Source: Promethearchaeota archaeon (lineage in GTDB: Archaea; Asgardarchaeota; Thorarchaeia; Thorarchaeales; Thorarchaeaceae). From it: a stretch of DNA of 40,024 nucleotides. Below the pieces are notes generated by a model, which was not told where the DNA came from, made no database searches, and saw nothing but the letters and a program-made list of their open reading frames with translations. The position numbers and the translations under genes were made by a program. Each line of letters opens with the position of its first letter. Positions within the stretch are counted from its first letter, which is position 1. Shown here piece after piece: positions 5,399 through 34,182 of the stretch. The stretch covers positions 19,235 through 59,258 of the forward strand of contig JBHLPF010000023.1 of NCBI GenBank assembly GCA_048939765.1, given 5' to 3'.

Positions 5399-5406
5399 CT
5401 TAAGAA
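5399..5406 (-). promoter_or_regulatory. TATA-like box (TTCTTAAG) for the putative ncRNA
   Basis: About 23-25 nt upstream of the first base of the 5' helix (5376), which is archaeal TATA-to-TSS spacing. Confidence 0.45.
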
Positions 5407-5426
5407 CCACCCATATCTCGAAAATC

Positions 5427-5930: not shown

Positions 5931-6067
5931 GTACGTCGGGTCTAACTGAATGAATGCTGCCTCCTGATATCAGGAGATGTTTGGCAAAAGAGGCATATAA
6001 AGGCAATTCCAAATCACATTTGATACGAGAAGGGTTATAGGGAAGAAGCGTGGGCCAGCGGGTGTTG

Positions 6068-7468: not shown

Positions 7469-7541
7469 ATTTGTAAGGAATTCCGTTGATGTTTTATTCT
7501 GCTGTCTACAAGACATAGATGTCAGGCTGGATGCGATTAAG

Positions 7542-8237
7542 TTGTCAGAGTGCACAGAATGCACGAAGCGAAAAGGTGAGATTAGTTCGGAAGATCTCTT
7601 TCCGTGTGTTCTTTGTGGGGAGCCTAGGTGCGTGGCTCACGCAGTGTGGGTACCCGCCCATATCTTGGATAGACCATTGGACTCAACTCAGGCCATTGTT
7701 AAAATGATGTCTGGGAGTTCAGACAAGGGTTGGTACGCCTTTTGTGGTAGAACCGGGCATGTTCCTAGAGGGATGCCAATATGGTACGGAAAGGAACGTG
7801 ATGGGGGAAAGATTGTCGAAGAAATAATGAACCATGAGAAGCCAGAGGGTCTCGAGATGTTTCCCATGTGGGAGGTGGGATTGGTAGAAGAGAGACTGGA
7901 GAAGCGATGGACAAAGGATCATTTCGAGGTAAGCTGTGATATTGCAGCCACCATCAATCTCGTTCATCGACTCTGGCAAAAGAAGGAAGATCCACGTGCG
8001 TTCCTCGCTACATTGCAGACACTGGTGTTTGAAAACGTCGCTAGCAAGAAAGCGATTTTCTTTGGGGCATCTAAAGAGGAGATAAAGAAGGGCATAGGGG
8101 AGAATCCAACACTCGCCGACGTAGTAAAGTATGTTTGCAGCAGGTGTGCTGTGGTTCCATGTCTTAATAGGCAGGCACCATTTCATAATCAGAAACTCTT
8201 CAAGACACTCATCAAGAGACCCGAGCTACTGAAATGA
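7542..8237 (+). CDS. Cys/His-rich zinc-finger hypothetical protein
   Basis: N-terminal CTEC-x14-CVLC-x4-CVAH, internal C-x4-H and C-terminal CSRC-x4-C. TTG start. Confidence 0.7.
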   Translation: MSECTECTKRKGEISSEDLFPCVLCGEPRCVAHAVWVPAHILDRPLDSTQAIVKMMSGSSDKGWYAFCGRTGHVPRGMPIWYGKERDGGKIVEEIMNHEKPEGLEMFPMWEVGLVEERLEKRWTKDHFEVSCDIAATINLVHRLWQKKEDPRAFLATLQTLVFENVASKKAIFFGASKEEIKKGIGENPTLADVVKYVCSRCAVVPCLNRQAPFHNQKLFKTLIKRPELLK

Positions 8238-8405
8238 TCCTTCAAAGGCATCCATAACAAGAAAGTCAAAAAGGCTTCGAATTTTACGACTGAATGACAG
8301 GGACCGTCTGGAGAGATGATACGCCAGTCATCCTCCTAGTTCTCGAGAACATTTGCACCGAAGCATGTGTGGTGATGGACACAGTCTTCGGTCGGGGTGC
8401 TCACA

Positions 8406-11400
8406 ATGCATGAGAAATCTTGGTCAGAGGAAGAACAGTATCGGCTGCTCTTCGAGAATTTGTCAGATGGAGTGTACAGAACCGATAGAAACGGCATCAT
8501 TACGATGTGTAGTGATATCGGAGCTGAGCTCTTCGGCTATACACGTGAGGAAATGGTAGGCCGGAACTTTGGAAACCTAGTGCACCCCGAGGACTTGCCG
8601 CTTATCCTCGAGGCCCATAGAGAGAGCCAAGAGAGCGGGAAAACTACTCCTGGCGGCATAGAGGCACGAGGAATCAGAAAAGACGGCACTGTATTCCACT
8701 TCCATGTCACCAATACGATTCTAATGGACGATGGAGAGCCTACAGGATATCAATCTCTGATTCGAAACGTATCCGAGAGAAAGGCGGCTGAGGAGGCGCT
8801 CAGGCAGAATGAGCAGAGATATAGGAATCTCTTCAATAACTCTCCAGTTTCAATGTGGGAAGAAGACTTCACCCAAGTGAAGGAGTGGATGGATAGTCTT
8901 CGCGAGGAAGGAATAACTGACTTGAAAGCATATCTCGATGAAAATCGAGAGGCAGCAAGGCATGCTCTCTCGCTGGTTAAGATTGTTGACGTGAATTCCA
9001 GATCCGTCGAAATGTATGAAGCTGATTCCAAAGAGCAGCTTCTCGCTAATTTCAGCGCAATCTTCGCCGATGAGACCTGTCCATGTTTCACCAATGAGCT
9101 TCTAGCAATCTGGAATGGAAGCCCGGATCGGCTCCAATTCGAGAGCACCGCGGTTACTCTAGAGGGAAAACATCTGCATACGGGGATAACATGGAAAGCA
9201 CCAATCATTGAGGGAAAAATGGATCTATCCAGAGTAATGGTGGCGGTCTCGGATATCTCGCATCGGATGGCATTCGAAGACGCATTGAGATCTTCTGAGG
9301 AGAAATACAGGACTATTGTTGATGCAATGGAGGACATGGTCTTCGTTTATGACAGAAACGGAGATTACTCACAGTATTTTGCAGCTGACGACCGCCTCTT
9401 AGCAGTCCCACCTGAGGAATTTCTTGGAAAGAACGTAAAGGACGTGCTTTCACCAGAATTAGCAGAGTCATTTCTCGCATGCTTTGACAAAGTGAGATTG
9501 ACAGGAGAAGCAGAAAGACTGGATTACATGCTTGTGATTCGGGGGGAAATCCTCTGGTTCTCTGCAAGCTTGACTCTTCATGAGGATGGAGAGAGCATTG
9601 TTGCAGTAGTTCGTGATATAACTGCACGCAAAGAAGTGGAAAACGAACTTCGTGATAGTGAGGAACGGTTTGCAGTCTTTGCAGACAACATCCCAGGACC
9701 TGTCTTCATCAAGGACAAAGAATCAAACATGCTCTACGCGAACAGATACATGAAAGAAACTTTCCGCGTGTCAGAGGTGGAGGGCCTTAACACATTAGAA
9801 CTCTTTCCAAAGGCTCTAGCTGAACCAATGGTCGCGGACGACAGAAAGGCAATGGAAGAAGGTCCCGTGCAGGTCTTGCAAAGAGTCCCTGATGCGGAGG
9901 GAGCTATCCATTTCTATCAGACCTCCAAGTTCCCAATTATTAGAGAAGGTAAACCAACCCTGCTAGGTGGCATCGCCCTGGATGTCACTGATCGAATCCA
10001 GGCAGAGGAGGCGATATTAGAGTCGGAGAGAAAATACCGTAGACTCTATGAAACAATGGAAGATGGATTTGTCAGTGCAGATAGAGATGGAAGGTATCTA
10101 GAGTTTAATGCAGCCTATCAACAACTGTCAGGGTACTCAGCTGAGGAATTGAGGGAGAAGACATTCTGGGACTTGACGCCACCTGAATGGCACGAGATGG
10201 AGAGGAGAATATATCAAGATCAAACAATGATGCTGGGATATTCTGACATCTATGAGAAAGAACTCTTGAGAAAGGATGGCACAAGAATCCCGATTGAACT
10301 CAGGGTTACATTGATCAGAGATGAAAAGGGCAATCCAATTGGCACCTGGGCCATTGTTCGCGACATTTCACTTCGAAAGAAAGCGGAGGAAACTCTCCGT
10401 GAGGAGCGAGACACAGCTCAACGATATCTGGACATAGCTGGTGCGGCCATAGTTGTTGTGGGTGTTGATGGCAGAATTCACCTCGTCAATAGGAAGGGGC
10501 TTGAAATATTGGGCTATGAGGCAAGCGAGGTCGTTGGGAAATCATGGTTCGACTACTTCACTCCCAAAAACAAGTCTCAGGAAGAAAGAGATAGCTTCAC
10601 GGGTGTTATCGAGGGCAGCAGTGGACTATCAGGCAAATTCTCGCGAGTTCTGGTAGACAAGTTTGGTGAAGAACGCATAGTAGCCTGGGAGTTTCAGCTT
10701 CTTACTAGTGATGCGGGGAATATCATTGGGATGATAGCCTCAGGCGAGGATATCACAGAGAGAGACCGTGCTGAACGCGCGCTACGGGAATCTGAAGAAC
10801 AGTATAAGTCAACGCTTTGGGCTATCAGTGACGCAATTCATGTGGTAGATACAGATTTGAAAATTCTTCTGGCTAATCCCTATCTTGAGGGCTGGCTGGA
10901 GAGTCTGAATATTAGCCTGGACTTTCTAGGAAAAAGAATTGATGAGGCATTTCCATTCCTTCCCGAATCGATCCTAGACGAGTATAGGACGGTCTTTCAG
11001 ACTGGAGAGATTTTCACTAGCGAAGAGAGGAATGTTCTTGGAGAGCGTGAGATTATCACTGAAACCACCAAGATACCCATAATTCGAGAAGGGAAAGTTG
11101 TCCAAGTAGTGACTATAATCAGGAATGTTACAGAAGCAAGACTTGCAAACCAAGCACTGAGAGACTCCGAGGCGAAATACAAGCAACTAGTGGAACAATA
11201 CACACAGGGTATAGCGATAATTCAAGGAGAACCGCTTAAGATCGCATTCGTTAATGCGGCTCTAGCTAGAATTCTTGACGTAGAACCTGAAGAGATAGTG
11301 GCATACTCCCCAGATGAGATACAAAGAGTCATCCATCCAGACGACTTCAATGAGATAATGAAGCGATTCAGTGGTATGATGCAAGGCAATCCTGGTGGCG

Positions 11401-12998
11401 ATGATCCATTCGGATTCAGACTCGTAAGACCTAGTGGTGAGATTCGAATGGTTGAATTACTGGGGCGCAGAGTCGAGTATGAAGGGGATTTTGCGATTCA
11501 GATTGCTGTGGTAGATGTTACTGACAGAGTTAAGACGGAAAAGGAACTCAGAGAGTCTGAGGAGCGTTACAGAAGGCTGGCTGAGGAATCACTCCAAGGA
11601 CTCGCTATTATTCAGGATGGAAGATATGTCTATGCCAATCCCTCTTTTGCCAGAATCCTAGGACACAAGGTTGATGAAATTCTCAAGTTCACGGCTGACG
11701 AGGTTTGGGAGCTCGTCCATCCAGCTGATCGCGCAGAGTTGCGCCGCAGAAACGAGGATATCAGAGCTGGGCGCGCACCCGCGCCGCGTCATAGATTCCG
11801 CTATGTCAGAGAAGACGGCGAAATCCGATGGGTGGAGTCTTTCGTGGGGCAGATAGAGTATGAGGGACGGCTTGCGATTCAGGTATTGGACATTGATATA
11901 ACTGGACGGATGATGTCTGAGAAGGCACTTCGAGACAGTGAGGCAAAATACCGCCAGCTTGTGGAGCAATCTGCTCTTGGAATCATGATTGTTGAAGGAT
12001 TGCCGCTGCGTATTGCATTTGCCAACGACGCTCTGGCGAGGATATCTGGATTCACCGTTGAGGAGCTACAGTCGTTGTCTCAGGAACAGATTGAAGGGTT
12101 CATCCATCCAGAGGACTTTGAGTCAGTTCTTGAAATGATGTCTGCAGCATTGGGTGGAGCGCCTCTGCTAGACGCGCCATTGACAATCCGAGTCATTCGC
12201 AGCGATGGAAAGATGGTTTGGGTCGAAGTCCTTGGGGATAGAATCGAATTTCAGGATCGAATAGCCATTCAGGCAACTATAGTTGACATCACAGACCGTG
12301 TTATTGCGGGACTGGAGAAAGAAAAGGCTGAGCAAGAACTGAAGACTGCAGCAGAAACGTCTATGCTCTATCTGGACTTGTTAGGCCATGACATGCGAAA
12401 CAGACTTCAAGCAATGCAGATGGCTGTTGAGCTCTTCCAGTTCGATGAAACGAGACCACATGCGATTTCTGTACTGGAGCGAGTGCTAGAGCTGATCGAT
12501 TCATCTGAGGCTTTAATCGATAAGGCACATGCGACACGCGGGCTTCTGTCAGCACCAATGGAGATCATGTCCCTCTATGACGCAGTGAAAGAAACCACGA
12601 ACGCTTTTCGAGCAAAGGAGGAAGATGCTATAATTGAGGTTGAATGTCGAGCCACAGAGGCTCATGTGGTAGCAGATGAGTATCTTGGACACCTCCTAAC
12701 GAATGTGATTGAAAACGCCATCATTCACAATCCGGAAGAAGAGAAACACGTCTGGGTTACTTTGACAGAGGAACGTGGTGGCTTTGAGGTTTCAGTCGCT
12801 GACAATGGCGAAGGTGTACTCGATTCAATGAAGGATGTGCTCTTCGATCAGGAGAGGCGATATGGAGGCTTGGGTCTCCATCAAGCCAAACGGATCCTTA
12901 CCAAGTATGGTGGCAAGATAGAAGTTTCCGATAGAGTCCCAGGAGTCCCCTCCAAGGGTGCACTCTTCAGACTCTGGTTCCCCAAGCGAGTTCTGTAG
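8406..12998 (+). CDS. Cytoplasmic sensor histidine kinase with 10 PAS domains
   Basis: Ten PAS/PAC units, mostly beginning 'EE(R/K)Y(R/K)xL' and ending D(I/V)T/S. H-box LLGHDMRN; HATPase NVIENAIIH, DNGEGV and GGLGL. ATG 8406 follows GGGGTG (ORF track start is 8397). Confidence 0.95.
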   Translation: MHEKSWSEEEQYRLLFENLSDGVYRTDRNGIITMCSDIGAELFGYTREEMVGRNFGNLVHPEDLPLILEAHRESQESGKTTPGGIEARGIRKDGTVFHFHVTNTILMDDGEPTGYQSLIRNVSERKAAEEALRQNEQRYRNLFNNSPVSMWEEDFTQVKEWMDSLREEGITDLKAYLDENREAARHALSLVKIVDVNSRSVEMYEADSKEQLLANFSAIFADETCPCFTNELLAIWNGSPDRLQFESTAVTLEGKHLHTGITWKAPIIEGKMDLSRVMVAVSDISHRMAFEDALRSSEEKYRTIVDAMEDMVFVYDRNGDYSQYFAADDRLLAVPPEEFLGKNVKDVLSPELAESFLACFDKVRLTGEAERLDYMLVIRGEILWFSASLTLHEDGESIVAVVRDITARKEVENELRDSEERFAVFADNIPGPVFIKDKESNMLYANRYMKETFRVSEVEGLNTLELFPKALAEPMVADDRKAMEEGPVQVLQRVPDAEGAIHFYQTSKFPIIREGKPTLLGGIALDVTDRIQAEEAILESERKYRRLYETMEDGFVSADRDGRYLEFNAAYQQLSGYSAEELREKTFWDLTPPEWHEMERRIYQDQTMMLGYSDIYEKELLRKDGTRIPIELRVTLIRDEKGNPIGTWAIVRDISLRKKAEETLREERDTAQRYLDIAGAAIVVVGVDGRIHLVNRKGLEILGYEASEVVGKSWFDYFTPKNKSQEERDSFTGVIEGSSGLSGKFSRVLVDKFGEERIVAWEFQLLTSDAGNIIGMIASGEDITERDRAERALRESEEQYKSTLWAISDAIHVVDTDLKILLANPYLEGWLESLNISLDFLGKRIDEAFPFLPESILDEYRTVFQTGEIFTSEERNVLGEREIITETTKIPIIREGKVVQVVTIIRNVTEARLANQALRDSEAKYKQLVEQYTQGIAIIQGEPLKIAFVNAALARILDVEPEEIVAYSPDEIQRVIHPDDFNEIMKRFSGMMQGNPGGDDPFGFRLVRPSGEIRMVELLGRRVEYEGDFAIQIAVVDVTDRVKTEKELRESEERYRRLAEESLQGLAIIQDGRYVYANPSFARILGHKVDEILKFTADEVWELVHPADRAELRRRNEDIRAGRAPAPRHRFRYVREDGEIRWVESFVGQIEYEGRLAIQVLDIDITGRMMSEKALRDSEAKYRQLVEQSALGIMIVEGLPLRIAFANDALARISGFTVEELQSLSQEQIEGFIHPEDFESVLEMMSAALGGAPLLDAPLTIRVIRSDGKMVWVEVLGDRIEFQDRIAIQATIVDITDRVIAGLEKEKAEQELKTAAETSMLYLDLLGHDMRNRLQAMQMAVELFQFDETRPHAISVLERVLELIDSSEALIDKAHATRGLLSAPMEIMSLYDAVKETTNAFRAKEEDAIIEVECRATEAHVVADEYLGHLLTNVIENAIIHNPEEEKHVWVTLTEERGGFEVSVADNGEGVLDSMKDVLFDQERRYGGLGLHQAKRILTKYGGKIEVSDRVPGVPSKGALFRLWFPKRVL

Positions 12999-13006
12999 AG
13001 TTTCCG

Positions 13007-14092
13007 CTACGAGTCGGACTCGCATGCTGCAGGATCATCTGGCAATCGGCCATAGACTTTCCTGCCTAACCAAATGGCAACATAGACAAGTGCTATCAAC
13101 ACTGGAACCTCAATAAGTGGTCCGACCACCGCTGCAAGGGCTTGCCCAGAATCAATTCCGAATACGCCTATTGCCACAGCAATAGCTAGCTCAAAGTTAT
13201 TGCTAGCCGCAGTGAAAGACACGGTCACGTTCTTGTCGTAGCCGAACTTCAAGAAATAAGAAATGCCAAATGAAAGAAAGAACATCAGCATAAAGTACGA
13301 CAGCAGCGGCAAGGAGATTCTCAAGACGTCAAGGGGCAACGTAAGTATCTTCTCTCCCTGATAGAGGAACATCACTACGACGGTGAAAAGCAAACCAATG
13401 AGAGCTGTAGGTCCAAGTCGAGGAGCAAATTCATTGTCATACCATTCCTTGCTTCGGGTTCGAATCAATGTGAAACGGGTGATGATTCCTGCGAACAGTG
13501 GAATCCCGAGGAATATCAGGACGCTTTTCGCGATATCTATGATAGAGATCGGAACAACTGACCCTGATCCCGGCACTATGAACTCAGACAGAACCTCGAT
13601 ATAGAACCACGCCTCGACACTGTAGAGAAGGATTTGCATGATCGAGTTGATGGCGACAAGGACAGCACAGGACTCGCTGCAACCTCCTGCCATCATGTTC
13701 CAGATGAGTACCATGGCAATACATCTGGCTAGCCCCACAAGAATCAGGCCAACTCGATAGTCAGGCAGGTCTGGGAGGAATATCCATGCTAGAGTAAACA
13801 TCAACATTGGTCCTATGAGCCAATTTAGTGCCAATGAGGTTCCAAACATTCTCTTCTCTGAGCGGAGCTTGCCTAGTTCCTCGTACTTGACCTTTGCAAG
13901 CACAGGATACATCATCCAAATTAGGCCGATAGCAATAGGGAACGAAACCGTGTCGATTCTCCAGAAATCCAAGGCGTCAGCAATTCCGGGGAAGATATAG
14001 CCCAGTAGGAGCCCAATGGCCATTGCCAGAATAATCCAGACAGGCAGAAGCTTGTCAAGTAGATTAAGTGATTTTCGGGGCTGCTGACTCAA
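13007..14092 (-). CDS. acr3: Acr3 family arsenite efflux transporter
   Basis: WMMYPVLAKV, NWLIGP, GLARCIAMVLIWN, SNNFELAIAVAI and GPLIEVPVLI. TTG at 14092 follows GAGGTG. Confidence 0.96.
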   Translation of the reverse strand: MSQQPRKSLNLLDKLLPVWIILAMAIGLLLGYIFPGIADALDFWRIDTVSFPIAIGLIWMMYPVLAKVKYEELGKLRSEKRMFGTSLALNWLIGPMLMFTLAWIFLPDLPDYRVGLILVGLARCIAMVLIWNMMAGGCSESCAVLVAINSIMQILLYSVEAWFYIEVLSEFIVPGSGSVVPISIIDIAKSVLIFLGIPLFAGIITRFTLIRTRSKEWYDNEFAPRLGPTALIGLLFTVVVMFLYQGEKILTLPLDVLRISLPLLSYFMLMFFLSFGISYFLKFGYDKNVTVSFTAASNNFELAIAVAIGVFGIDSGQALAAVVGPLIEVPVLIALVYVAIWLGRKVYGRLPDDPAACESDS

Positions 14093-14152
14093 TCTTGACC
14101 ACCTCAATCTGGATAGGTTTCGTCATCGGGAAATACTGGCTATCTGAAGATT

Positions 14153-14190
14153 TGGCATATGTAGCATATGACAGCTGTTACATTATATGG
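14153..14190 (-). promoter_or_regulatory. acr3 promoter: TATA (TATAAT, ~14188-14183) and a palindromic operator candidate
   Basis: CATATG-TAG-CATATG at 14156-14170, with TG..CA extension, lies over the predicted TSS. Confidence 0.45.
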
Positions 14191-14220
14191 CATGCCAGCC
14201 GAACACATTCACATACTTCA

Positions 14221-15078
14221 TCACTTATATTTGCCAAGATACTGAACCTTTGCGAATCTATGATTCTCTGGATGTGTTCGTGCTTCCTCCTTACTTATCT
14301 CACGAAGATCGATATTCAAGCTTCTTCTTGCGCCGTCTATCCATATCTCTCTAGCCGCGCGAGCTGCAATACTAGCTGCAGCTACAGCAATCTCATCCTC
14401 TGCTTGGTGACGCTGCACCAACTGGACTTGCTCAAGATTCATTACTCGATCAAGCCGTTCTCTGGTTTTTTCTCGTGCGAATTCATCAACCACGATCTGA
14501 ATGCTTGTTCCAGAAGAGTGTCCGACCTCGTTGTAGACATTGGAAATGGCAATAGAATGCGCCCAGGCTAGCAAGTCATTGAGGTTCTTGCCCTCAGCAT
14601 GAAGCTCAGCTAAACGTGTGTTGAATTTTTCTGGCGAGATTAAGACAATATATCGAAACATGCTATTCATCTTGATCAGTTGATCCAAATCCATGATTCT
14701 CTGAATAGACAGAGCCTTACTGTCCATGACTCCATGTGCCCTCAAGATGCTGGATTGATTGGAAGAAACAGCCACTGCTGAAACCACAAGGGGTCCTAGC
14801 CACTCACCTTTTCCAGCTTCGTCGGAACCAATTACGATATCGAATCCATCGCGATCCTCCATTTCAAGGACTGTATCTTTGAGAAGGGATTCAGCGAGCA
14901 ATCCTGAGGCCACAACTTTTCCACTTGTATAGCCAATAATGGTTCCTCCAGCACACTTCAATCGAAAGGCCTCATATTGATTGGTAGGCTTTGCTTTGGT
15001 GACTTGGGAACTCTTGAATAACAACTCGTTGAGCTCTTGCAGTCGATTAGCATCAATTTTGACAACGTATGGGGGCAA
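14221..15078 (-). CDS. rnhC: Ribonuclease HIII
   Basis: N-terminal TBP-like domain (QYEAFRLK...IIGYTSGKVVASG), then IGSDEAGKGEWLGPLVV, DSKAL, VDEF, QAE and AAASIAAR. Confidence 0.88.
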   Translation of the reverse strand: MPPYVVKIDANRLQELNELLFKSSQVTKAKPTNQYEAFRLKCAGGTIIGYTSGKVVASGLLAESLLKDTVLEMEDRDGFDIVIGSDEAGKGEWLGPLVVSAVAVSSNQSSILRAHGVMDSKALSIQRIMDLDQLIKMNSMFRYIVLISPEKFNTRLAELHAEGKNLNDLLAWAHSIAISNVYNEVGHSSGTSIQIVVDEFAREKTRERLDRVMNLEQVQLVQRHQAEDEIAVAAASIAARAAREIWIDGARRSLNIDLREISKEEARTHPENHRFAKVQYLGKYK

Positions 15079-15092
15079 CGTCTATCCTCCGA

Positions 15093-15875
15093 TTATTCGA
15101 GATGCACAACATCACCCAGAGCCACGGTCTCTGTGCCTGCTCCTGTATTCACAATCAATGACCCCGTTTCATTGATATCCTCAGCTACTCCTTCGATAGC
15201 GCCAGCATCCTGCTCAACTCGAACCCTTTTTCCAAGTGTGTCACAGAGACCAACATACTCAATGAGCATTGGAGTAAAGGATTGAGCTGCTCGGATTGCA
15301 ATCAATCTTCTATCAATCTCACCAACGATGCGTGATGCGAGATGTTCGCGGGACGTATTCGAACAAATCTCATCGTAGATTGTTGTCATACTATTTCGTA
15401 CGTCGGGAGGGAAGTCTTCACGTGTGACATTTTGATTTATCCCGACTCCCAGAACGACTCCCTTCACCTGTTCACCTTGTGTAACTAATTCGCTCAGAAT
15501 TCCTCCAATCTTCCTTTGGCCTACTAGGATATCATTTGGCCATTTCAGACGCACTGGAATAACTCCCAGCTTCATTATAGCAGTTGCAGAAGCACATCCC
15601 ATTAGAAGCCCAAGCAGTGGACTCAAGGACTCATTGATCCGCGGTTTCAACACAATTGATAGATATAGACTGCCTTTGGGAGAAACCCAAACCCGGTCGT
15701 GTCTGCCCCGACCCTGTGTCTGTTTATTCGCAACGACAACTAAGCCCTCACCCTCACCTTCCAACACGTGCTGCTTAGCGACTGCATTCGTAGAGCCCAC
15801 TTCGTCCAAAACGATCAACCGTGGTGCCAAGATTTTGGTCTCCGCACACCTCAGAATCTCATCCTGGTCTAACAT
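15093..15875 (-). CDS. birA: Biotin--protein ligase (group I, no HTH)
   Basis: STN, QTQGRGRHDRVWVSP, LKWPNDI, KIGGIL, GVGIN and a C-terminal SH3-like domain. Confidence 0.95.
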   Translation of the reverse strand: MLDQDEILRCAETKILAPRLIVLDEVGSTNAVAKQHVLEGEGEGLVVVANKQTQGRGRHDRVWVSPKGSLYLSIVLKPRINESLSPLLGLLMGCASATAIMKLGVIPVRLKWPNDILVGQRKIGGILSELVTQGEQVKGVVLGVGINQNVTREDFPPDVRNSMTTIYDEICSNTSREHLASRIVGEIDRRLIAIRAAQSFTPMLIEYVGLCDTLGKRVRVEQDAGAIEGVAEDINETGSLIVNTGAGTETVALGDVVHLE

Positions 15876-15958
15876 CTCTCTGCACCTGTTGATGAAGGTT
15901 CTCCGTGAGGTATTCTGAGCCCCAGCGCTTAAAAATGGGGCTTTTTTGGATGCTCTAT

Positions 15959-16798
15959 CTAATACTCATCCAGCGTTGTTTGACTAATTGCAAGCTGGGG
16001 AAGCATTCGCTCAAGCTTACCTTTCTGAACTGGACGGATGCGGTTCATCAATTCTATCATCTGTAAGGCATTTACGGGTCCGAAACCAAAGAAATGATTG
16101 TTGAAGAAAGAATAGACAGTTTCGTTCTCATCAAGAAGACGAATAAATCGCTCCTTCCAGTCCAACAACTCATCATGGGAATATCGATAGTTGTACCAAG
16201 GATTACTCCCATGACCATGGAGACGAACGTAGACAAAGTCTGTTGTCACTCTCGTGTTTATTGGAAGGCGCGGCTCATCAACAATTACATGTGCAATTTG
16301 GTAGTCTTCAAGTAATCGCCAGATTCTCGGATGAATCCAGCTCTCATGACGAAACTCTATTGCATACCGAAAGTCAAGGTCTAGGGCAGAGAAGAATGTT
16401 TCAAGATCTCCAAAGGTGGAAATATCCCACGGAGGTAATTGAATGAGCAAGACGGCTAAGCGCGGACTCATGGGTCGCATCCTGTCAAAGAAGGCGGTCA
16501 ATATTGCGCCCGCCTCTGACTGCAGGTTCAATCTGTTATCGTGAGTCACTCGATGTGGAATCTTTGCTGTGAAATGTTTGGTTTCGGATAGTGCAGCCAT
16601 CAAATATTGGATTATCGACTCTTTAGGAGGCCCATAGAATGTGCTGTTTATCTCAGCGACATCAAAGTAAGTGAAATATTGCTGAAGCATGGTCTGATTC
16701 GAGCTATAGAATATCCCTTTCCACTCCGGATAAGACCATCCACACGTACCAATATGGAGTCCTCTTCTCAGTGGAACTCTGCTCCTCAATACGCTCAT
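15959..16798 (-). CDS. DUF72 (YecE-like) protein
   Basis: IGTCGWSY, EINSTFY, KIP-x3-TH, QLPP, EFRHESW, YVRLHG and FFNN. Confidence 0.92.
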   Translation of the reverse strand: MSVLRSRVPLRRGLHIGTCGWSYPEWKGIFYSSNQTMLQQYFTYFDVAEINSTFYGPPKESIIQYLMAALSETKHFTAKIPHRVTHDNRLNLQSEAGAILTAFFDRMRPMSPRLAVLLIQLPPWDISTFGDLETFFSALDLDFRYAIEFRHESWIHPRIWRLLEDYQIAHVIVDEPRLPINTRVTTDFVYVRLHGHGSNPWYNYRYSHDELLDWKERFIRLLDENETVYSFFNNHFFGFGPVNALQMIELMNRIRPVQKGKLERMLPQLAISQTTLDEY

Positions 16799-22716: not shown

Positions 22717-23136
22717 CTACTTCAAGGCCTCAGACGAGTCTGGGTATAGGAGAACATAGACCGCTTGATTCAGAGTCAGTATATTGCTATTCACCCATTG
22801 AAAGACCATGTCTACGTTCTCTTTCGATGAAAGCCTTCCTAGAGCGTCCATTGTTGCAGCCTTGCAGTCAGGGGTTTCAAGAAGGTCTTCAATAGTCTTC
22901 ACAAGAATCATCTGTCTGACATCTGGACTGGTTTCAGTCAACCAGTGAAGCACGCTGTCTTTGACTTCTGACTCGACACCAGAGTGAGCAGCAGCCTCAT
23001 TCAGAGTATTTGAAATCTCCTTCACAACTTCTTTATCTTTGAGATCCTTCAGCTCATTTTCAATGATTGTGACGATAACTTGAGTTATATCAGGATCACT
23101 TCGAAGAATGCCAACAAGATCAGCCCGGGCTTTCAT
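22717..23136 (-). CDS. Hypothetical helical protein
   Basis: Charged helical ORF MKARADLV...VYVLLYPDS. Start is uncertain (up to 23184). Confidence 0.7.
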   Translation of the reverse strand: MKARADLVGILRSDPDITQVIVTIIENELKDLKDKEVVKEISNTLNEAAAHSGVESEVKDSVLHWLTETSPDVRQMILVKTIEDLLETPDCKAATMDALGRLSSKENVDMVFQWVNSNILTLNQAVYVLLYPDSSEALK

Positions 23137-23235
23137 TGGGCCATTCTCTTCATCTCTAGTCAAGGGTGTCGAGACTCCTATCAAGTCTGACTTCTAGAAC
23201 CTTCCATTCCGAATATAGATGTTGCTCGTCTTGTA

Positions 23236-26059: not shown

Positions 26060-26350
26060 TCACTTGAGCCTGCTCCAAGACGGTACCCCTTTGTACTCAC
26101 TTGATGCTAGGATGCCTCGCTCCTCCATGTTTTGCAAGTGCCATCTAAACTCGTTTCTTCCGACAACGATGTCGCCTGAGAGCAGATGGAACTTATGATA
26201 GAGCGTAGCCTCGAACTCAATGATCGCTTTTCCAAAGGCCCACATAATCAACTCCTCAACTTGCGGAGGGACTGTATTGGGTGGTGCCAATGGGGGCTCA
26301 ATAGACTCTGGTGGGCGTGCGCCTAACATTACCAATTGTATCACCATCAT
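26060..26350 (-). CDS. Small hypothetical protein, possibly winged-helix-like
   Basis: Likely start 26350 or 26329 (after GGTGAT). Helix-helix-'EFRWHLQNMEERGILAS'-beta-hairpin pattern. Confidence 0.6.
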   Translation of the reverse strand: MMVIQLVMLGARPPESIEPPLAPPNTVPPQVEELIMWAFGKAIIEFEATLYHKFHLLSGDIVVGRNEFRWHLQNMEERGILASSEYKGVPSWSRLK

Positions 26351-26664
26351 GCACTTCACTAGAGGATATATAATGACAATTTTGCAGACTATAAAAGCGA
26401 AGAAGAAATTGGAGCCCATAATGCTTGATTTTGTAAAATATGCTTCAAGATTGTTCAGAATACTTGAGTGGATTGTAATATCCCAGTTGTGCCAGTCATG
26501 TCTGCAAATTAGCGGAAAATTCACCGATTTATCGACAGTCTATGTGCTACAAATCCTCAAATTAACTTAGAGTCATGTGTAGACACCTGAAACGCCACAT
26601 TTCGGGATACGCATCCATTGAATGCTATCTCGAATCAATCGCCCATCTATCTGACGTGATTTCG

Positions 26665-29600
26665 ATGAATTCAAACCGAATACCGATCGGCCGCAGACCC
26701 ACAGTGAAACAATGCACAGCGGGTCAAAGAGAGTTGTTACGGATAGGACTACCGCTTATTGCTGTAATCCTCCTTTTGGTACCTATATGTTCATCGGACG
26801 TTGCTATGCAACTATATACTGATACGAACAATCGGGTTGATGGTCGATATGAACCAGCGTCCAATCTAATCAGAGTCAATCTTCCCTATTTTGTACCGTC
26901 AGTCGCGACTGGGAACACAACTTACGGGCGAGGAGTGGCGTGGATCTACAATGACACCCTCCGCTTCAAAGACCCCGTGAATTTGATCGATGCCTCGGTC
27001 AACATTGGACTGGGAGACCCCATGTTCTACACACTTACTGGGGCAGATGTGGATTCGGATGGGTATACAGAGTTCTTGTTCATGAAGTTCAACATGACGA
27101 ACATGAACCTGGTTGTTGTTGATTTTGATGGGGGAGGATCAGCAACGGAGTACAACTATGACGGCGTGCCGGATCCCCAAGGAATCGTTGTTGGGGACTT
27201 CAATGGCGACGCCTCAATCGACGTGGCGGTCTATGATAGAATCAGGGTCATGATGAAGGATCTGAATACCGATGCTTTCATGGGAGGGTTCACTGTCCCT
27301 AATACTGGTACGGATGAACTTGTAAAGACTGTAGTGGGCGACTTTGCACTCGATCCAGGGAGCGAGATTGCCGTTCTATATATCAGCGACGTTGGATCAG
27401 GAATGGAAAGGACGCATGTTCGAACCATAGCTGGAGATGGATCCGTGATAGATTTTGTCGATTCACTTCAAATGATTCGTGGTTTTGACATTGTTTCATT
27501 CCATCATGAGGGGAACTTCGATAATCTTGCAGTGACTATGTTTGAGCATCAACCTATGGAGAGTGTTCTGGTCGGATTCCATGGGAACCTGACACCAAGA
27601 TTCGAGCTTAGAGATGACAAGTACTATGGAGATTCCTACGTGAAGGCGGGCTACTTCAACATGGACTCGCAAGAGGATCTGGTGGTCGTCCCTGCACAGT
27701 ACTTCAGTATGCTCACAGTCAATGGTGCAGATGGAAAGCTCATGAGAACATCAGCGGAAGCATGCATCAGTATGTCTTCGAGAGCATTCGCGGTAGGCCT
27801 TCTCGATTCAGACTCACACTCTGACATCGCAATAGAGGGAGAGAGAGGGCAGTTTGCTTTGTATAGGGGCTCCAATGGTGAAACGGGCTATGAGGATCCA
27901 AGATTGCCTGCACCCTTTGAACAGATTCTTGCCTATGATATCAACGGAGATGGCAGAGATGACGTCGTGACCCTCTATGGACAAATCAATGTCCTTCTCA
28001 GTGATACAGACCCTCCACAGGTGACACTAGACCCACTTTATCCAACGCATCCAACTATCTATGACCCGTACTTGAAGGTGGAATTAACCGCTACAGACGA
28101 GATGTACGTGCAAGAAGCATTGGTCTACATTCGTCCCGTCGATCTCATGGTCCCAGGGTATCAAGTCAATGAGATGACAGAGGCTCAAAATGGGAAATAC
28201 ATCTTCTTCCAAACTGACCTGCAGCCAGGCACTTACGAATACTACATTGAAGTTGTGGACCCATATCTGAATACCTACTCATATGGCAATTCCACGAATC
28301 CGTATACAATGAATGTTGAAGGACATCTTGCATCCGGAGCACAATATAACGTTACATTTGATCAGGCACAGAGACATATCTTGGCTTTGGGGAATAGCTC
28401 TCTTGGTGAAGACCGCATCTACACTGTCGTTTCGGACTCCGAGCTGAGGAGCACGAGCCTGAGGGTCTTCGACACAGATTTCAATAAACTTGGAGAGTTC
28501 ACATTGACCGCAACTACTGGGACAGATGAGGCATTCGAAGTATACACTGGAATGTTCGACGGTGACAATGTACTGGACCCAATTCTCATCAGTAGCAACT
28601 ATACTCATACCAGAATATGGGCGTTTAACGGTGATACTTTCACGTCCTGGAGGAATGCGACCTTCAATCTCTATCCGGCATTATATGACCATGCGATGAT
28701 CATTGTAGACGATGATGGAGATGCTATTGATGAACTGGCATTTATCGGTCAAAACAGTACTGGCTTCTTCCTCATTAGAGCAGATGGCGGTTTCACTTCG
28801 TGGTCCGAGGCGATTCTGAAAGAAACTTCCGCAGTCGTGGATTATGTTTCAATCAACATGTTCGATACGAACCCTCAGCTTGCCATATTGAAATACAACA
28901 GCGAATATAACAACGAACTCGACTTCTATCATCTCAACAATGTGACATACCTAGAGACACTCAACTACACATCCCCAGGCTCAACCTTTTACGACGAACC
29001 ATTCAGTATTCAGGTTTACAAGAATTCTACACACTCAAGTGCGCAGCTGATGGTGGCCTATCGGAGTTGGCTTGTAGATGTGCCAACGAATTATGTCTGT
29101 CTAGTTGACGAGAATACCATCAGCGTAGGTGATTCACCAAGTTACACGTTTACAGGTCAACATATCAGAGTGACGCTTCCATACGACATTGATAATGACG
29201 GGGTCGATGAATTATCATATATTGATGACAGCGGAAACGCGACGCTCCATGAGCTTGCCTCCACAGCGGTCAAATTATGGTCGGTGTATGTTAGTGAGGC
29301 AGTACCAAGAAGTGGTATAGTGCTTGACTTCGATGGAGATGGCGAGATGGAGTTTGTCATCTCGACATCGGACGATTTCCTAACCGCAATCGGTTTTGAT
29401 GGCAGAATTGACTACAGAGCAAATGTAGGCACTGCTTTCAATATGGCTACCATTGGGGATATTGATGTTGGAACGGGAGAAGACATACTAGCATTCCCAA
29501 TTTTCAAGACTCGGAATAGTCTGGGAATAATTCGCAACATTGACTTACTCTATATGCTTGATGTCAGTTTCGAAATTGAAGCGAACATAACAATTCAGGG

Positions 29601-32600
29601 AAGCAGCCTATGGGCAAATGCCACAGTGCAGAATGTGTATGGCGAACCAGTGGATGATGCTTCAGCATCACTTGTGGCTTCATATCGATTTGGTGGTGGT
29701 AGTGCTGAGCAGACAATGGGAATGGTCTATGATGAGTCTACAGAACTGTACACCACAACCGTTGCTCCGAACTGGCCGATGGGGATGGTAAATCTGTCCC
29801 TCTCAGTCAGCCACGAGTACTACGTTGGTGTAGTCCAAGAGTTCGAGAATGCTTTGAGGGTCGAATCGCCCCTGAGCATATCACTCTTCACCGAGTCCGA
29901 AGTGATGCAGGGAGGAGATCTTGAGATTAACATAACTGTAACAGACAGCCTAGGTGCCAAGGTGACAGATGCAGATGTCAATGTCACGCTTGAGGGTGTA
30001 AACTATCCCGCATTTTATGTGGAAGGCTCTTATTTCACTTCGATTTCAGGGATTACACTGGCTCCAGGAAGTCACACCGTTTTTGCCTCAGCTGACCATG
30101 AATATGCAACCACTGGGACAAGTCATTCAAGACCCATATCGGTCTTGGCTGATACTCTGGAAATCCTTCGAAACTCCCCTGAACAAACACTGCAGGACCA
30201 GTTCTTCACGACATGGCTAAATATCACCGATTTATATGGAAACCCGATTGATGGTGCGACTGTTTCAGTAGACTTTGGGGTAATTGACTTCACGTTGGTA
30301 GAAATTCTACCGGGTAAATATCTGCTGGATAGCATTGCTGCAATGCCAGTTGGAAACTACACAGCAGACATCTTCATCCAGCATCCATTTGTTGAAGGAA
30401 GAGAGTTTGGCCAGTATCACATGGCGGTGACTGGGACCCTGGCGCCTGCTGTTGCTTATGAATCCGATGTCGAAGGAGGCCAGAACTTCACTGTTTCCAT
30501 CTTTGTTTATGACTCGTACGGTGTTAAACCCGAAGGAGCATGGGTTGAAGTTGAGCTCAATGGAAACAATCATACTGCCACGAATATTGAAGGAGCAGAA
30601 TTCAGAGTAGAATTGAATGCCTCATTAGGGATTGGTCAGCATAGCTTCATCGTGTATGTCGGAGCCACCTTTGGAGAGCCAAGGGCTGATGCTCACGATC
30701 TGTTTGTTTATTCAGCTGCATACAATGAGGTAGAATCATCGATGGGATGGGTATTGAGCCAAGGGGATTTGACATGGCTGACTGTCACCGTGATGGATTG
30801 GCGAGGAGTCCCAGTGGTTGATGCGACAGTAACGATGCTGAGTCCCAAGAGCGCCCTATTCACTCCAGGCGGCGATGGCACATATTGGGTCGATTTGGAC
30901 ACAACAGGCTATGCGCCTTCGAATTACTCATTGCTCATTCTAGTCGAGCATACCTACCTGTTCGCAAACGACATGTATCTTGATTTGACCGTTAACGGAC
31001 AAGCTGTTGTTGATGTCTATGTTCCAGATTCAGTGTTCAACCATCAAAATGCAACCTTTGAGTTCGGAGTGGTTGACATCTATGGAAACCCGTTGTATGA
31101 ATTTGACTACAACTTCGTCCTCGCTGGCGCCTATGCTAAATCAGGCACATCATATTACTATGAGGTTCTCTGGGACTTCCAGCCCGATATTTACCCGGGT
31201 TCCTATCCACTGAATATGACAATAACGGGTCCATTTCTATCATTGACTGAATATGTAGTCTGGGTAGATGTAATTGGAAACCCTCTATCGAGCGTACCCT
31301 CTCCCGTGAATCAGTCAATATACCTCCAAGGAGACCAGATAAACTTCACAGTCGTGCTGGACGATTTGGCAGGCTATTCCATCTCAGGGGCTTATGTGAC
31401 CGCTACAATCCGCGGGAGCATATACACTTTGACGGAAGGAGCTGCGGGGATCTATTCTAGAGATATACCGACTGCAGGGCTTCCTCTAGGGCAATACAAT
31501 GTGACAATCGGAATATCACAGGATTACCTATTGTCGCAGTCGCTCTCTATGGAATTGTACGTTAAGGGTTATGCCAGTGTAGACCTGTCTATCACACCTA
31601 GTCCAGTTTTGAACCAGTACAATGTGACATTTGATTTCACAATCACCGATACTTATGGAAACCCACTGACTGGCTTTGATTACTATCTTGACTTCGCTGG
31701 GGTCTATAACAAATCCGGGATTTCACTGACCCACAAGATTTCATGGGAAGTGGATCCAAGCTTCATACCAGGAAGCTATTGGCTCAACCTGACCGTCCAG
31801 AGTGCCCTGATTCTGAGGACTACTCACAATGTGAGCATAGGCGTGCAAGGAATTGTCGCAGCGCAGATAATAACACCATTGCCAAGTTCAACATTCGCCC
31901 AGGGAGACACCATCAACTTCAAGGTGGAGGTACGAGACAACGCGACTTCATACATTACGGGTGCCACGGTGACCCTCTACCTACATGGCACAACCTACCC
32001 ACTAACTGAAACGAGTATAGGCACCTATGGGATAAATGTCACGACTTCTGCCCTTCCACTAGGTGAATACAGTGCACAGATAACGGTTTCCGGAGCATTC
32101 ATGGAAACACAACAGCTAACTCGAAGTTTCGATATAATAGGAGACGCAATTGTTAGAGTGGACACTGACCCCTTAGTCATATTGAATTACGAGAATGCCA
32201 CATTTACAATTGCAGTAGAAGATCAGTACGGCAATCCAATAGGCGATTATGACTATATTCTCGACTTTGGGGGACAATATGACAAATCAGGAACCTCCGA
32301 CTACTTCAAGCTAATCTGGGACTTCATACCGCAATTGACTCCCAGTACCTATGTGCTCAATGTGACAATCTCTGGACCCCATATCCCCACGAGCTCGACT
32401 ACTCTACTCATAGATGTGAAGAGTCATACAAATGCCACTGTGCTATCACCAATTGCGGATACGACATTCGTACAAGGAACCGATTCCATAGTGTTCAGGA
32501 CGGACTTGAGAGACATGCTTGACAATGTGATGGATGGCGGTTCGGTTTCGGTTCTCATTCATGACTCATTCTTTGTTCTCACAGATCATGGCAACGGAAC

Positions 32601-34182
32601 CTACTCTAGAGTAGTATCAACTGCAGGCTGGGCCGCTGCTGATTACAACTATACTTTGATGCTCAGCCATCCTTACTTAGCTGAGGAATCCACAGTTAGA
32701 GGAACGGTAGAGATTCTAGCTGAACTGGAGATCAGTGTTAAATTCTTCCCAGAAGTGCCTCAGCAGGGAGAGTTGCTTAACATCACAATTGATGTGGCTG
32801 ATAAGTATGGCAATCCTGTTTCCGGCTTGGATATCACAGTTACATTCCAGAACATCCCAAAGCATCCTATAGAAGCAGAGCAGAGTGGCACCTACTTCGT
32901 AACCTATGTTGTGGCTTCACAAGGTTATGGTGACGAGCAGATTGTGATTGAAGCAGAGGGAGCCAAGTGCGTTTCATTTCTATCGCAGAGTCTCGCGACC
33001 GTCCCAGTCATTGTCGCAGTTCCTCAAATAGCACTGAGCGTTGAATCGTTTGGACCGCTATTTGCTATCTCGTTCTTAATCAGTTTCTTAGGACTGCTCA
33101 TCTACTTTAGAATATCATCAGGCCTATCAATAACAAGAGGGTCTCAAGAGAACCTCCTTAGAGGCTTGCGGAAACTAGACTATCTATACGGAGGAGTCGT
33201 GGCTCTTGCTGGTCTGACAATTTTCCATTCTTATGTATTAGCAGGGGCAGGAGAGTATGGCCTGGCTGTCGCTGAGAGCATATTGGTACTAGGAATCTCA
33301 CTGATACTATACGGGATATGGCTGTATCGAGATGCGTCCTCTTCGATTCTGGCTACTCAGAACATAAGCAGAAGAAGGATGATACTTGGGCTCTGGCATT
33401 TGATTTTCGTGCCAATCGTCATCGCACAGATATTCGACTGGGGGCGAAACATAGAGTGGCTGAAATTCTATGTATTGGATAATGTGTTTCACTTGGGCGA
33501 ACTCCAGGTACCAACCATAATGATGACAATATTCGCGGCGTACATCTCCTCAATTGTCATTGTTGTGGTGAATCTATATAGAGAAATCAGCAAAGGACTC
33601 ACGCGTTTGCACGAGATGGCTGTCCTGGGTACGCCGCCAATAGTCGTAGAGCAAGAATGTGTGGACCTCGTTGAGAATCTGAGTTCGTCAATCCGTATGA
33701 AATTCTTCATGTTCCTGGTCGTCTTAGCTGGAACCACGGTTCTCACCATGGACTTCCTCAGAAGCTATTCCCTGGGCGTCATTGTCCTTCTGCCCGTGGT
33801 GTTCCTTCTTGTTATCCCATATGCATCCTCAAAGGCGGCCAGAGGTCTATCAAGAGCATCAGGAGCAATGCGAAGTAGGAGAGTAGAAAAATCCCTCTCC
33901 GAGATTGCAGACGAAAGGACTGATATTTCAGCTTCAATGGATGTTGAAGAATACGAAATCCCTGAAGTAGATGAAGACATCACTACTGAGGAGGAAATAG
34001 CTGACGAACCTTCAGTCAAGCCTAAGACGCGCCTGACTAAGGCGGAGATCATTGAGAAGCTTCCTGATGAGCTTAAAGAGATAATGGGAATGGAAGAGCT
34101 CGAGAAGCTTACCAAGGCCCAGCTTGAAGACCTGCTACCACCAGGAGAAGAGGATACAGAATCAACCGAATCGGGAGAGTAG
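26665..34182 (+). CDS. Giant cell-surface glycoprotein: 2 FG-GAP beta-propellers, ~12 Ig-like repeats, 7-TM domain and acidic cytoplasmic tail
   Basis: Signal-like LLRIGLPLIAVILLLVPIC; many D-x-D/N-x-D-G loops; repeated D-x-YGNP motifs; many NxS/T sequons; seven hydrophobic segments near the C-terminus. Start is uncertain (26575-26704). Confidence 0.9.
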   Translation: MNSNRIPIGRRPTVKQCTAGQRELLRIGLPLIAVILLLVPICSSDVAMQLYTDTNNRVDGRYEPASNLIRVNLPYFVPSVATGNTTYGRGVAWIYNDTLRFKDPVNLIDASVNIGLGDPMFYTLTGADVDSDGYTEFLFMKFNMTNMNLVVVDFDGGGSATEYNYDGVPDPQGIVVGDFNGDASIDVAVYDRIRVMMKDLNTDAFMGGFTVPNTGTDELVKTVVGDFALDPGSEIAVLYISDVGSGMERTHVRTIAGDGSVIDFVDSLQMIRGFDIVSFHHEGNFDNLAVTMFEHQPMESVLVGFHGNLTPRFELRDDKYYGDSYVKAGYFNMDSQEDLVVVPAQYFSMLTVNGADGKLMRTSAEACISMSSRAFAVGLLDSDSHSDIAIEGERGQFALYRGSNGETGYEDPRLPAPFEQILAYDINGDGRDDVVTLYGQINVLLSDTDPPQVTLDPLYPTHPTIYDPYLKVELTATDEMYVQEALVYIRPVDLMVPGYQVNEMTEAQNGKYIFFQTDLQPGTYEYYIEVVDPYLNTYSYGNSTNPYTMNVEGHLASGAQYNVTFDQAQRHILALGNSSLGEDRIYTVVSDSELRSTSLRVFDTDFNKLGEFTLTATTGTDEAFEVYTGMFDGDNVLDPILISSNYTHTRIWAFNGDTFTSWRNATFNLYPALYDHAMIIVDDDGDAIDELAFIGQNSTGFFLIRADGGFTSWSEAILKETSAVVDYVSINMFDTNPQLAILKYNSEYNNELDFYHLNNVTYLETLNYTSPGSTFYDEPFSIQVYKNSTHSSAQLMVAYRSWLVDVPTNYVCLVDENTISVGDSPSYTFTGQHIRVTLPYDIDNDGVDELSYIDDSGNATLHELASTAVKLWSVYVSEAVPRSGIVLDFDGDGEMEFVISTSDDFLTAIGFDGRIDYRANVGTAFNMATIGDIDVGTGEDILAFPIFKTRNSLGIIRNIDLLYMLDVSFEIEANITIQGSSLWANATVQNVYGEPVDDASASLVASYRFGGGSAEQTMGMVYDESTELYTTTVAPNWPMGMVNLSLSVSHEYYVGVVQEFENALRVESPLSISLFTESEVMQGGDLEINITVTDSLGAKVTDADVNVTLEGVNYPAFYVEGSYFTSISGITLAPGSHTVFASADHEYATTGTSHSRPISVLADTLEILRNSPEQTLQDQFFTTWLNITDLYGNPIDGATVSVDFGVIDFTLVEILPGKYLLDSIAAMPVGNYTADIFIQHPFVEGREFGQYHMAVTGTLAPAVAYESDVEGGQNFTVSIFVYDSYGVKPEGAWVEVELNGNNHTATNIEGAEFRVELNASLGIGQHSFIVYVGATFGEPRADAHDLFVYSAAYNEVESSMGWVLSQGDLTWLTVTVMDWRGVPVVDATVTMLSPKSALFTPGGDGTYWVDLDTTGYAPSNYSLLILVEHTYLFANDMYLDLTVNGQAVVDVYVPDSVFNHQNATFEFGVVDIYGNPLYEFDYNFVLAGAYAKSGTSYYYEVLWDFQPDIYPGSYPLNMTITGPFLSLTEYVVWVDVIGNPLSSVPSPVNQSIYLQGDQINFTVVLDDLAGYSISGAYVTATIRGSIYTLTEGAAGIYSRDIPTAGLPLGQYNVTIGISQDYLLSQSLSMELYVKGYASVDLSITPSPVLNQYNVTFDFTITDTYGNPLTGFDYYLDFAGVYNKSGISLTHKISWEVDPSFIPGSYWLNLTVQSALILRTTHNVSIGVQGIVAAQIITPLPSSTFAQGDTINFKVEVRDNATSYITGATVTLYLHGTTYPLTETSIGTYGINVTTSALPLGEYSAQITVSGAFMETQQLTRSFDIIGDAIVRVDTDPLVILNYENATFTIAVEDQYGNPIGDYDYILDFGGQYDKSGTSDYFKLIWDFIPQLTPSTYVLNVTISGPHIPTSSTTLLIDVKSHTNATVLSPIADTTFVQGTDSIVFRTDLRDMLDNVMDGGSVSVLIHDSFFVLTDHGNGTYSRVVSTAGWAAADYNYTLMLSHPYLAEESTVRGTVEILAELEISVKFFPEVPQQGELLNITIDVADKYGNPVSGLDITVTFQNIPKHPIEAEQSGTYFVTYVVASQGYGDEQIVIEAEGAKCVSFLSQSLATVPVIVAVPQIALSVESFGPLFAISFLISFLGLLIYFRISSGLSITRGSQENLLRGLRKLDYLYGGVVALAGLTIFHSYVLAGAGEYGLAVAESILVLGISLILYGIWLYRDASSSILATQNISRRRMILGLWHLIFVPIVIAQIFDWGRNIEWLKFYVLDNVFHLGELQVPTIMMTIFAAYISSIVIVVVNLYREISKGLTRLHEMAVLGTPPIVVEQECVDLVENLSSSIRMKFFMFLVVLAGTTVLTMDFLRSYSLGVIVLLPVVFLLVIPYASSKAARGLSRASGAMRSRRVEKSLSEIADERTDISASMDVEEYEIPEVDEDITTEEEIADEPSVKPKTRLTKAEIIEKLPDELKEIMGMEELEKLTKAQLEDLLPPGEEDTESTESGE

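Follow-up and report, generated by a model that had tools for sequence, protein, structure and literature searches.

A giant surface protein of a Thorarchaeota archaeon ends in a conserved seven-helix membrane module with an adhesion-receptor-like layout

The stretch of DNA analyzed here, referred to as the window, comprises 40,024 nucleotides of contig JBHLPF010000023.1 (positions 19,235 to 59,258 of the forward strand; GenBank assembly GCA_048939765.1) from a Promethearchaeota archaeon of the family Thorarchaeaceae. One gene on its forward strand encodes a giant cell-surface protein of this Thorarchaeota archaeon, in which an adhesion-type head and stalk are followed by seven predicted transmembrane (TM) helices and a cytoplasmic tail. 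No other part of the protein is as strongly conserved as the seven-helix module. The initial annotation of the locus had likened this arrangement to that of an adhesion G-protein-coupled receptor (GPCR). The features of the gene are listed below, with amino acid (aa) positions counted along the longest open reading frame (ORF); TM1 to TM7 were delimited by a 19-residue Kyte–Doolittle scan.

26575..34182 (+): whole gene, longest ORF of 2535 codons, from the ORF list and its translation
26734..26790 (+): N-terminal signal or signal-anchor hydrophobic core, aa 54-72 (Kyte–Doolittle peak 2.59)
26870..29550 (+), outer limits provisional: FG-GAP (integrin-alpha-like) repeat region of the ectodomain (Pfam)
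29572..32994 (+): stalk of about 12 tandem immunoglobulin (Ig)-like domains, aa ~1000 to ~2130-2140 (Pfam and self-comparison)
33052..33828 (+): orphan seven-helix membrane module, aa 2160-2418 (hydropathy, AlphaFold2 and conservation)
33052-33114 (+): TM1, aa 2160-2180
33184-33252 (+): TM2, aa 2204-2226
33259-33327 (+): TM3, aa 2229-2251
33379-33435 (+): TM4, aa 2269-2287
33436..33510 (+): extracellular TM4-TM5 loop, aa 2288-2312, predicted short helix and beta-hairpin (DSSP of the model)
33511-33579 (+): TM5, aa 2313-2335
33580..33696 (+): predicted helical hairpin on the cytoplasmic side, into which TM5 and TM6 extend, aa 2336-2374 (AlphaFold2 model)
33697-33756 (+): TM6, aa 2375-2394
33769-33828 (+): TM7, aa 2399-2418
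33829..33918 (+): predicted basic helix continuing from TM7, aa 2419-2448 (model and charge count)
33919..34026 (+): acidic, variable, predicted disordered cytoplasmic linker, aa ~2449-2484 (low model confidence and variation among orthologs)
34027..34146 (+): C-terminal helical mini-domain, termed LP, aa 2485-2524 (four short helices in a confident model)

The translation begins most likely at Met31 (window 26665), which would give a product of about 2505 aa, because 14 full-length orthologs have their N-terminus at the equivalent residue. The public gene call of the same protein (P0002, 2458 aa) begins at Met78 and is without the signal sequence (26575-26808 region). A basic stretch precedes the hydrophobic core at aa 54-72, and the position of the core is kept in the orthologs. 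When the whole protein was compared with Pfam, FG-GAP_3 was matched in three stretches (1.9e-14) and FG-GAP at aa 450-466. The Ig-like domains of the stalk are roughly 95 residues each and match the families Invasin_D3, Big_1, Big_7, Wzt_C and Filamin. From aa ~1395 onward, self-comparison resolved the stalk into two-domain repeats of ~190 aa, adjacent units of which are 31-38% identical (E down to 7e-47). The last Ig-like domain (aa ~2064-2117; Big_1, Filamin and BIg21 matched) lies directly before TM1. The ectodomain contains 42 N-x-S/T sequons, compared with 17.2 +/- 3.7 in shuffled sequences, and only three cysteines. This enrichment suggests that the surface protein is N-glycosylated and, together with the extracellular Pfam families, places the N-terminal 2,100 residues outside the cell.

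All seven hydrophobic segments reported in the initial annotation were recovered from the translation of 26575-34182 (+) as seven Kyte–Doolittle peaks. Outside these peaks, the sole one of comparable height is the N-terminal signal or anchor at aa 54-72; two weak peaks (scores 1.6-1.7) occur at aa 2132-2156, in the linker preceding TM1. The pattern is not a chance one, since 128 full-length copies of the seven-helix domain were recovered, and nearly all of the 31 distant homologs checked keep the seven peaks. Counting Lys and Arg gave 19 residues on the proposed inner side (4 each in loops 1, 3 and 5, and 7 in the first 25 residues of the tail) versus 3 on the proposed outer side (0 before TM1, 0 in loop 2, 2 in loop 4 and 1 in loop 6). 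This bias and the secreted, sequon-rich N-terminal part fit an N-out/C-in topology, as had been proposed from the positive-inside rule.

A model of aa 2141-2450 was built with AlphaFold2 from a 30-sequence alignment, and contains seven long helices (mean predicted local distance difference test score (pLDDT) 85.7; predicted template modeling score (pTM) 0.77). The TM5-TM6 loop, which was correctly described as the longest, measures 39 aa; in the model it is a helical hairpin that extends into the cytoplasm (helices 174-210 and 215-251 in fragment numbering; pLDDT 92-98). The basic helix noted after TM7 was likewise reproduced: a model helix runs on from TM7 (258-308 or, in a second run, 258-296), and 7 of its first 25 residues are Lys or Arg.

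Among orthologs the module is 74-83% identical, versus 42-75% for segments of the ectodomain and 33-59% for the tail. Conserved family-wide are P2150, Y2177, Y2205, D2253, G2290, W2295, P2313, S2326, Y2335, K2376, F2380, L2381 and P2407; in the set of 128 domains, the positions conserved at >=85% read P, Y, Y, D, G, W, G, P, S, Y, K, F, L and P. These positions occur on both membrane faces. On the outside, the TM4-TM5 loop has the conserved residues G2290, W2295, Y2299 and G2308. On the inside, TM3 ends in a conserved Y-R-D sequence, and the cytoplasmic hairpin carries conserved R-E, G-T-P, E2361 and S-S-I-R elements flanked just outside by Y2335 (TM5) and K2376 (TM6), so that Y-R-E, G-T-P and S-S-I-R-x-K can be read around it. 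Within the helices, the polar positions H2275 (84%), S2326 (90%), Y2323 (77%) and N2333 (73%) are moderately to well conserved, and prolines are conserved at the start of TM5 and in the middle of TM7.

The extent of the family was determined by using the module as query, without a word index, against 1.84 billion cluster representatives. At E<=1e-3, 97 representatives were obtained, 43 of them below 1e-30, and in nearly all of these the match is C-terminal and the protein is 1,400-2,500 residues long; over the family as a whole, protein lengths range from 1,400 to 4,200 residues. Within the phylum, 87 of 400 genomes have matches (55 of 85 in the family to which the window belongs). Members of named origin belong to Thor-, Sif-, Odin-, Loki-/Prometh-, Hermod-, Hod- and Sigynarchaeota. 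The sole named non-Asgard member is P0195, a 141-aa database fragment on a 1.5 kb contig, labeled Theionarchaea and 84% identical to the module; it is probably mis-binned. Apart from this fragment, the family is, as judged by these sequence searches, restricted to Asgard lineages among its named members.

Two architectures were found, connected by single-sequence E-values of 1e-8 to 1e-12. In the window type, FG-GAP and Ig-like domains are followed by the seven helices and a short or acidic tail. In the other, of about 1,500 residues, a BNR_2/BNR sialidase-type propeller precedes the seven helices, which are followed by a cytoplasmic double zinc ribbon. Other members have only 2-18 residues after TM7. 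The question raised in the initial annotation, whether the domain recurs with different ectodomains in Asgard genomes, is thereby answered: FG-GAP/Ig and BNR propeller heads are mounted on the same base. Profile searches for short proteins yielded no free-standing form of the module and no link to another family, the short matches being gene fragments on short contigs. The same genome encodes a paralog of 1831 aa (G000:C50:79697-85192; L016:4198-9693, minus strand) with FG-GAP and Ig-like domains, a module 45% identical to that of the window and no LP motif. Many related genomes carry both long and short adhesin types.

Relatives of the module were sought among known families and folds. Pfam and NCBIfam gave no match for it, whether the whole protein, the module alone or 30 family members singly were searched. 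No 7tm family, including 7tm_2, was matched at E<=0.1 by the whole protein, its C-terminal 393 residues or the 30 family members, and the protein and family members had no Pfam match at E<=0.1 to 7TMR-DISM_7TM or 7TMR-DISMED1/2. A PDB-wide sequence profile search with the module was also without a match, so none of Pfam, NCBIfam and the PDB profiles assigned it to a known non-signaling family such as a permease or anchor. When the homolog P0080 was used to query the ESM Atlas, scores of only 0.75-0.81, at noise level, were obtained. Foldseek and VIA-align searches with the predicted module, whose model is a confident one, found no known fold. GPCR chains are numerous among the highest-ranked Foldseek matches, at E values of only 0.1-0.5; GPCR and rhodopsin are absent from the 50 best matches of the wide VIA-align search, and their chains align to the predicted model only at a root-mean-square deviation (rmsd) of 13-18 Å.

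Motif-level comparison gave a similar picture. Pfam identified no GAIN/GPS domain before TM1, where an Ig-like domain is found instead. The Bac_rhodopsin signature is absent, and TM7 lacks Lys and with it the retinal-binding residue. The absence of a GPS, of a TM7 Lys and of DRY and NPxxY motifs agrees with the initial annotation, though the Y-R-D at the cytoplasmic end of TM3 is conserved. No internal repeat, inverted or direct, was detected in the module by hhalign (probabilities 1-6%). Intramembrane enzymes (rhomboid, CPBP/Rce1-like and archaeosortase) were considered and ruled out, as the conserved positions include no Ser/His, Glu-Glu..Arg plus His, or Cys/Arg/His set and Pfam gave no match. 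By sequence and predicted structure, then, the module is a family and fold without known relatives. Of the adhesion-GPCR-like architecture described initially, the layout stands and the kinship is highly improbable: with no family match, no GAIN/GPS and no TM7 Lys, the likeness, as judged from sequence and model, appears to be one of layout only and points to convergence rather than ancestry.

The cytoplasmic tail of the ~2,500-residue ortholog group is built in three parts: the basic helix, an acidic stretch that varies, and ~40 strongly conserved terminal residues. The acidic linker differs in length and sequence among orthologs, and of the 117 residues of the whole tail 34 are Asp or Glu. 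When aa 2141-2535 were modeled in a second AlphaFold2 run, the pLDDT was about 35 for aa 2437-2484 and about 91 for aa 2485-2524, the LP mini-domain. The motif of this mini-domain reads R-L-T-K-x-E-I-I-x-x-L-P-x-E-x-K-E...E-L-x-K-L-(T/S)-K-x-Q-L-x-x-L-L-P, and 15 columns are invariant in 11 orthologs. The tail had no Pfam match even at E<=10, and a search of the mini-domain against PDB sequence profiles at E<=10 returned only designed repeat proteins, with no UBM or HeH chain. An HeH/SAP/Rho-N-like assignment is unsupported, with no Pfam match at E<=10 and none at E<=0.1 on the HEAT-repeat protein described below. The ubiquitin-binding motif UBM has a Leu-Pro core as its signature (PMC8468184). 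The pattern L-P-x-E-L-K-E recalls this motif and the Pfam and PDB searches were unsupportive, so that by sequence a UBM identity of the LP mini-domain is neither supported nor excluded.

Profile searches detected the LP motif in 43 of 61 genomes of the family, in three classes of protein: seven-helix adhesins, ORFs of ~390-445 residues and giant ORFs of 2,000-3,850 residues. The same genome encodes a soluble protein of 431 residues (HEAT-LP; G000:C16:14255-15550; L018:673-1968, plus strand; L022:6256-7551), in which N-terminal HEAT repeats (HEAT_2 2.1e-12, Pfam) are followed by two strong and two weak tandem LP copies separated by Lys-rich linkers. With a profile made from adhesin tails only, the strong copies scored E 6.5e-5 and 1.9e-4, and the whole protein 1.7e-8 against 17,401 open frames. 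The HEAT-LP gene is convergent with a vWA gene, beyond which lies an amidohydrolase gene; genes for SPFH/Band 7, NfeD and Rce1-like protease proteins are located upstream. LP-containing ORFs of ~390-445 residues, similar in size to HEAT-LP, are present in about 30 other genomes.

All four giants that were checked combine a signal with one C-terminal TM helix, and their long acidic tails terminate in the LP motif (E 1.9e-13 to 3.5e-4); in one of them the motif is present twice. Pfam scans of three giants showed ectodomains of different families (CarboxypepD_reg/SpaA-like and DUF7738). Single-pass giants of 2283-3357 aa are encoded by ORFs 256-7680 and 9160-16008 (minus strand) of locus L029 (G387:C61:16800-33200) and also at L028 and L030. 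In the two adjacent L029 giants the cytoplasmic tail also contains a helix-hairpin-helix stretch, an unusual feature in a surface protein; HHH_5 was matched at 8.8e-10 in one of the three giants scanned with Pfam, and the same motif was recognized by eye in a fourth. In the genome of the window, a further single-pass giant with an acidic tail (G000:C38:2-5371, minus strand) runs off the contig end after at least 1790 residues; its two LP-like tail copies did not match the profile significantly (E 0.04-3). On this sequence evidence, the LP mini-domain makes a putative link, newly added here, between the tail of the protein described, the HEAT-repeat protein and the single-pass giants.

The protein can be compared with several known systems. 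Adhesion GPCRs (class B2: latrophilins, CELSR and ADGRV1) are generally known to have the same very large modular ectodomain, seven helices in N-out/C-in orientation and a cytoplasmic tail, whereas the window protein lacks the 7tm_2 signature and the GAIN/GPS domain, and its predicted packing aligns only at the rmsd given above. We know of no G-protein partner in these organisms; no search for G-alpha homologs was made in this genome. Integrin alpha shares the FG-GAP propeller head, an Ig-like leg, a membrane anchor and a short cytoplasmic segment for possible adaptor docking, but has one helix rather than seven. No counterpart of the beta subunit was identified, and the GFFKR-type membrane-proximal motif of integrins is absent from the window protein, in which TM7 is followed by S-S-K-A-A-R-G. 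FG-GAP repeats are, moreover, a common element of surface proteins of prokaryotes that are unrelated. Fibrillar adhesins of the bacterial invasin/intimin type have a similarly long tandem Ig-like stalk of the same Pfam families (Big_1/Invasin_D3). They are linked to an outer-membrane beta-barrel or the cell wall and have no cytoplasmic part, whereas the window protein has seven helices in the cytoplasmic membrane and reaches the cytoplasm. The single-pass giants (L028, L029 and L030) resemble it in having a signal, an ectodomain of >2,000 residues and an LP-terminated acidic tail, and differ in their one C-terminal helix, their other ectodomain families and, in some, the helix-hairpin-helix of the tail.

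The nearest described prokaryotic concept is 7TMR-DISM, a bacterial arrangement of 7TMR-DISMED1/2, 7TMR-DISM_7TM and cytoplasmic kinase, GGDEF, EAL or PAS modules (PMC6107284). Alike are the prokaryotic origin and the order of an extracytoplasmic domain, a seven-helix domain and variable cytoplasmic modules. All three defining domains are different, however: the tails in the window family end in an LP mini-domain, a double zinc ribbon or nothing, and the window ectodomain is about ten times larger.

We favor, with moderate confidence, the reading that the protein is an adhesin or contact protein on a specific seven-helix platform, that the LP mini-domain of its tail is a docking module and that the whole is an independently evolved adhesion-receptor layout. 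The seven-helix base would be more than a bare anchor: it could give a firm hold to the very long ectodomain and offer intracellular partners both a conserved cytoplasmic face, made of the Y-R-D end of TM3 and the TM5/TM6 hairpin, and the tethered module of the tail. The LP mini-domain would most likely serve as a docking handle common to several giant surface proteins. Since a conserved soluble HEAT-repeat protein contains repeated copies of the LP motif, the LP-bearing proteins probably share a binding partner or bind each other. Signal transduction across the membrane is possible. A contact-sensing receptor, as initially proposed, is supported in part. The protein has no recognized signaling output domain.

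This last observation is one of several that weigh against the favored reading. The structural statements are all based on AlphaFold2 models. No neighbor gene is shared across the five neighborhoods examined, and since the neighbors differ in each of these contexts, the adhesin genes stand alone. Tail docking cannot be the general function of the module, because many members have a cytoplasmic tail of 2-18 residues. The LP link rests on profile searches, because reciprocal single-sequence searches from the HEAT-LP repeats were weak: the best non-self matches were two giants of this genome at E 0.04 and 0.14, and 0.14 is the closest these repeats came to the adhesin tail.

A plain multi-pass anchor, in which the helices only fix a long surface fiber and nothing is transmitted or recruited, is the main rival. 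It would sit well with the missing signaling domain, the many nearly tail-less members and the stand-alone genes; moreover, single-helix giants in the same organism family carry the same tail motif, so that the tail could function without any need of seven helices. A passive anchor should, however, tolerate far more change than is seen in a module that is better conserved than any other part of the protein (74-83% versus 42-75%), and it would not call for the conserved polar and charged positions at the cytoplasmic face, for the structured extracellular loop or for the retention of the module under two unrelated heads across Asgard lineages. We therefore regard a mere anchor as doubtful. A more far-reaching proposal than the docking platform is that Asgard archaea have an adhesion-receptor system of their own, in which the base would relay engagement of the ectodomain inward and the LP mini-domain would plug receptors into one adaptor or turnover machinery, as an analog and not a homolog of eukaryotic receptor-adaptor coupling; we consider this unlikely as it stands. 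Two minor rivals concern the helices themselves. A tethered channel or transporter, perhaps oligomeric and gated by pull or contact on the ectodomain, would make use of the conserved in-helix polar positions (H2275, S2326, Y2323 and N2333) and of the prolines at the TM5 start and mid-TM7, and the protein shares with known force-gated systems the combination of a multi-pass base and a long extracellular tether. Neither the protein nor its family members matched a transporter or channel family in Pfam or NCBIfam, the module has no internal repeat, and among the structural matches no channel or transporter fold ranked above generic bundles, which makes this rival quite improbable. Common ancestry with GPCRs, as a diverged archaeal homolog of adhesion GPCRs, could draw on the shared overall arrangement (adhesion ectodomain, seven helices, N-out/C-in orientation, long third inner loop and post-TM7 helix) and on the GPCR chains at the top of the Foldseek list; set against the absent signatures and poor superposition reported above, it is hardly credible. 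The docking platform is the reading that we retain.

The neighborhood of the gene in the window is as follows. Two ORFs of 154 and 155 aa without a Pfam match lie at 26060-26524 (minus strand) and 22717-23184 (minus strand), and the former is divergent from the adhesin gene at a distance of about 50 bases. Farther upstream, the 1533-residue product of 8397-12998 (plus strand) resembles a cytoplasmic sensor kinase; it has at least seven PAS domains, and HATPase_c is its C-terminal domain.

No closer relatives of eukaryotes than the Asgard archaea are known, and models of eukaryote origin depend on intimate and lasting contact between an archaeon and its partner cell. To our knowledge, little is known about surface proteins able to make and report such contacts, and the literature searched contained no description of this family or of this Asgard architecture. 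According to the present analysis, giant adhesion-type proteins of several Asgard lineages are anchored by a dedicated, strongly conserved, predicted seven-helix module that would reach the cytoplasm, and in Thorarchaeota several giants appear to share a cytoplasmic end-module with a conserved soluble HEAT-repeat protein. The adhesion-GPCR look of the protein also serves as a caution, as it would reflect a convergent layout and not ancestry. The membrane module of 260 residues and the mini-domain of 40 residues are clonable pieces with which the question of how contact outside the cell may be connected to machinery inside it can be approached.

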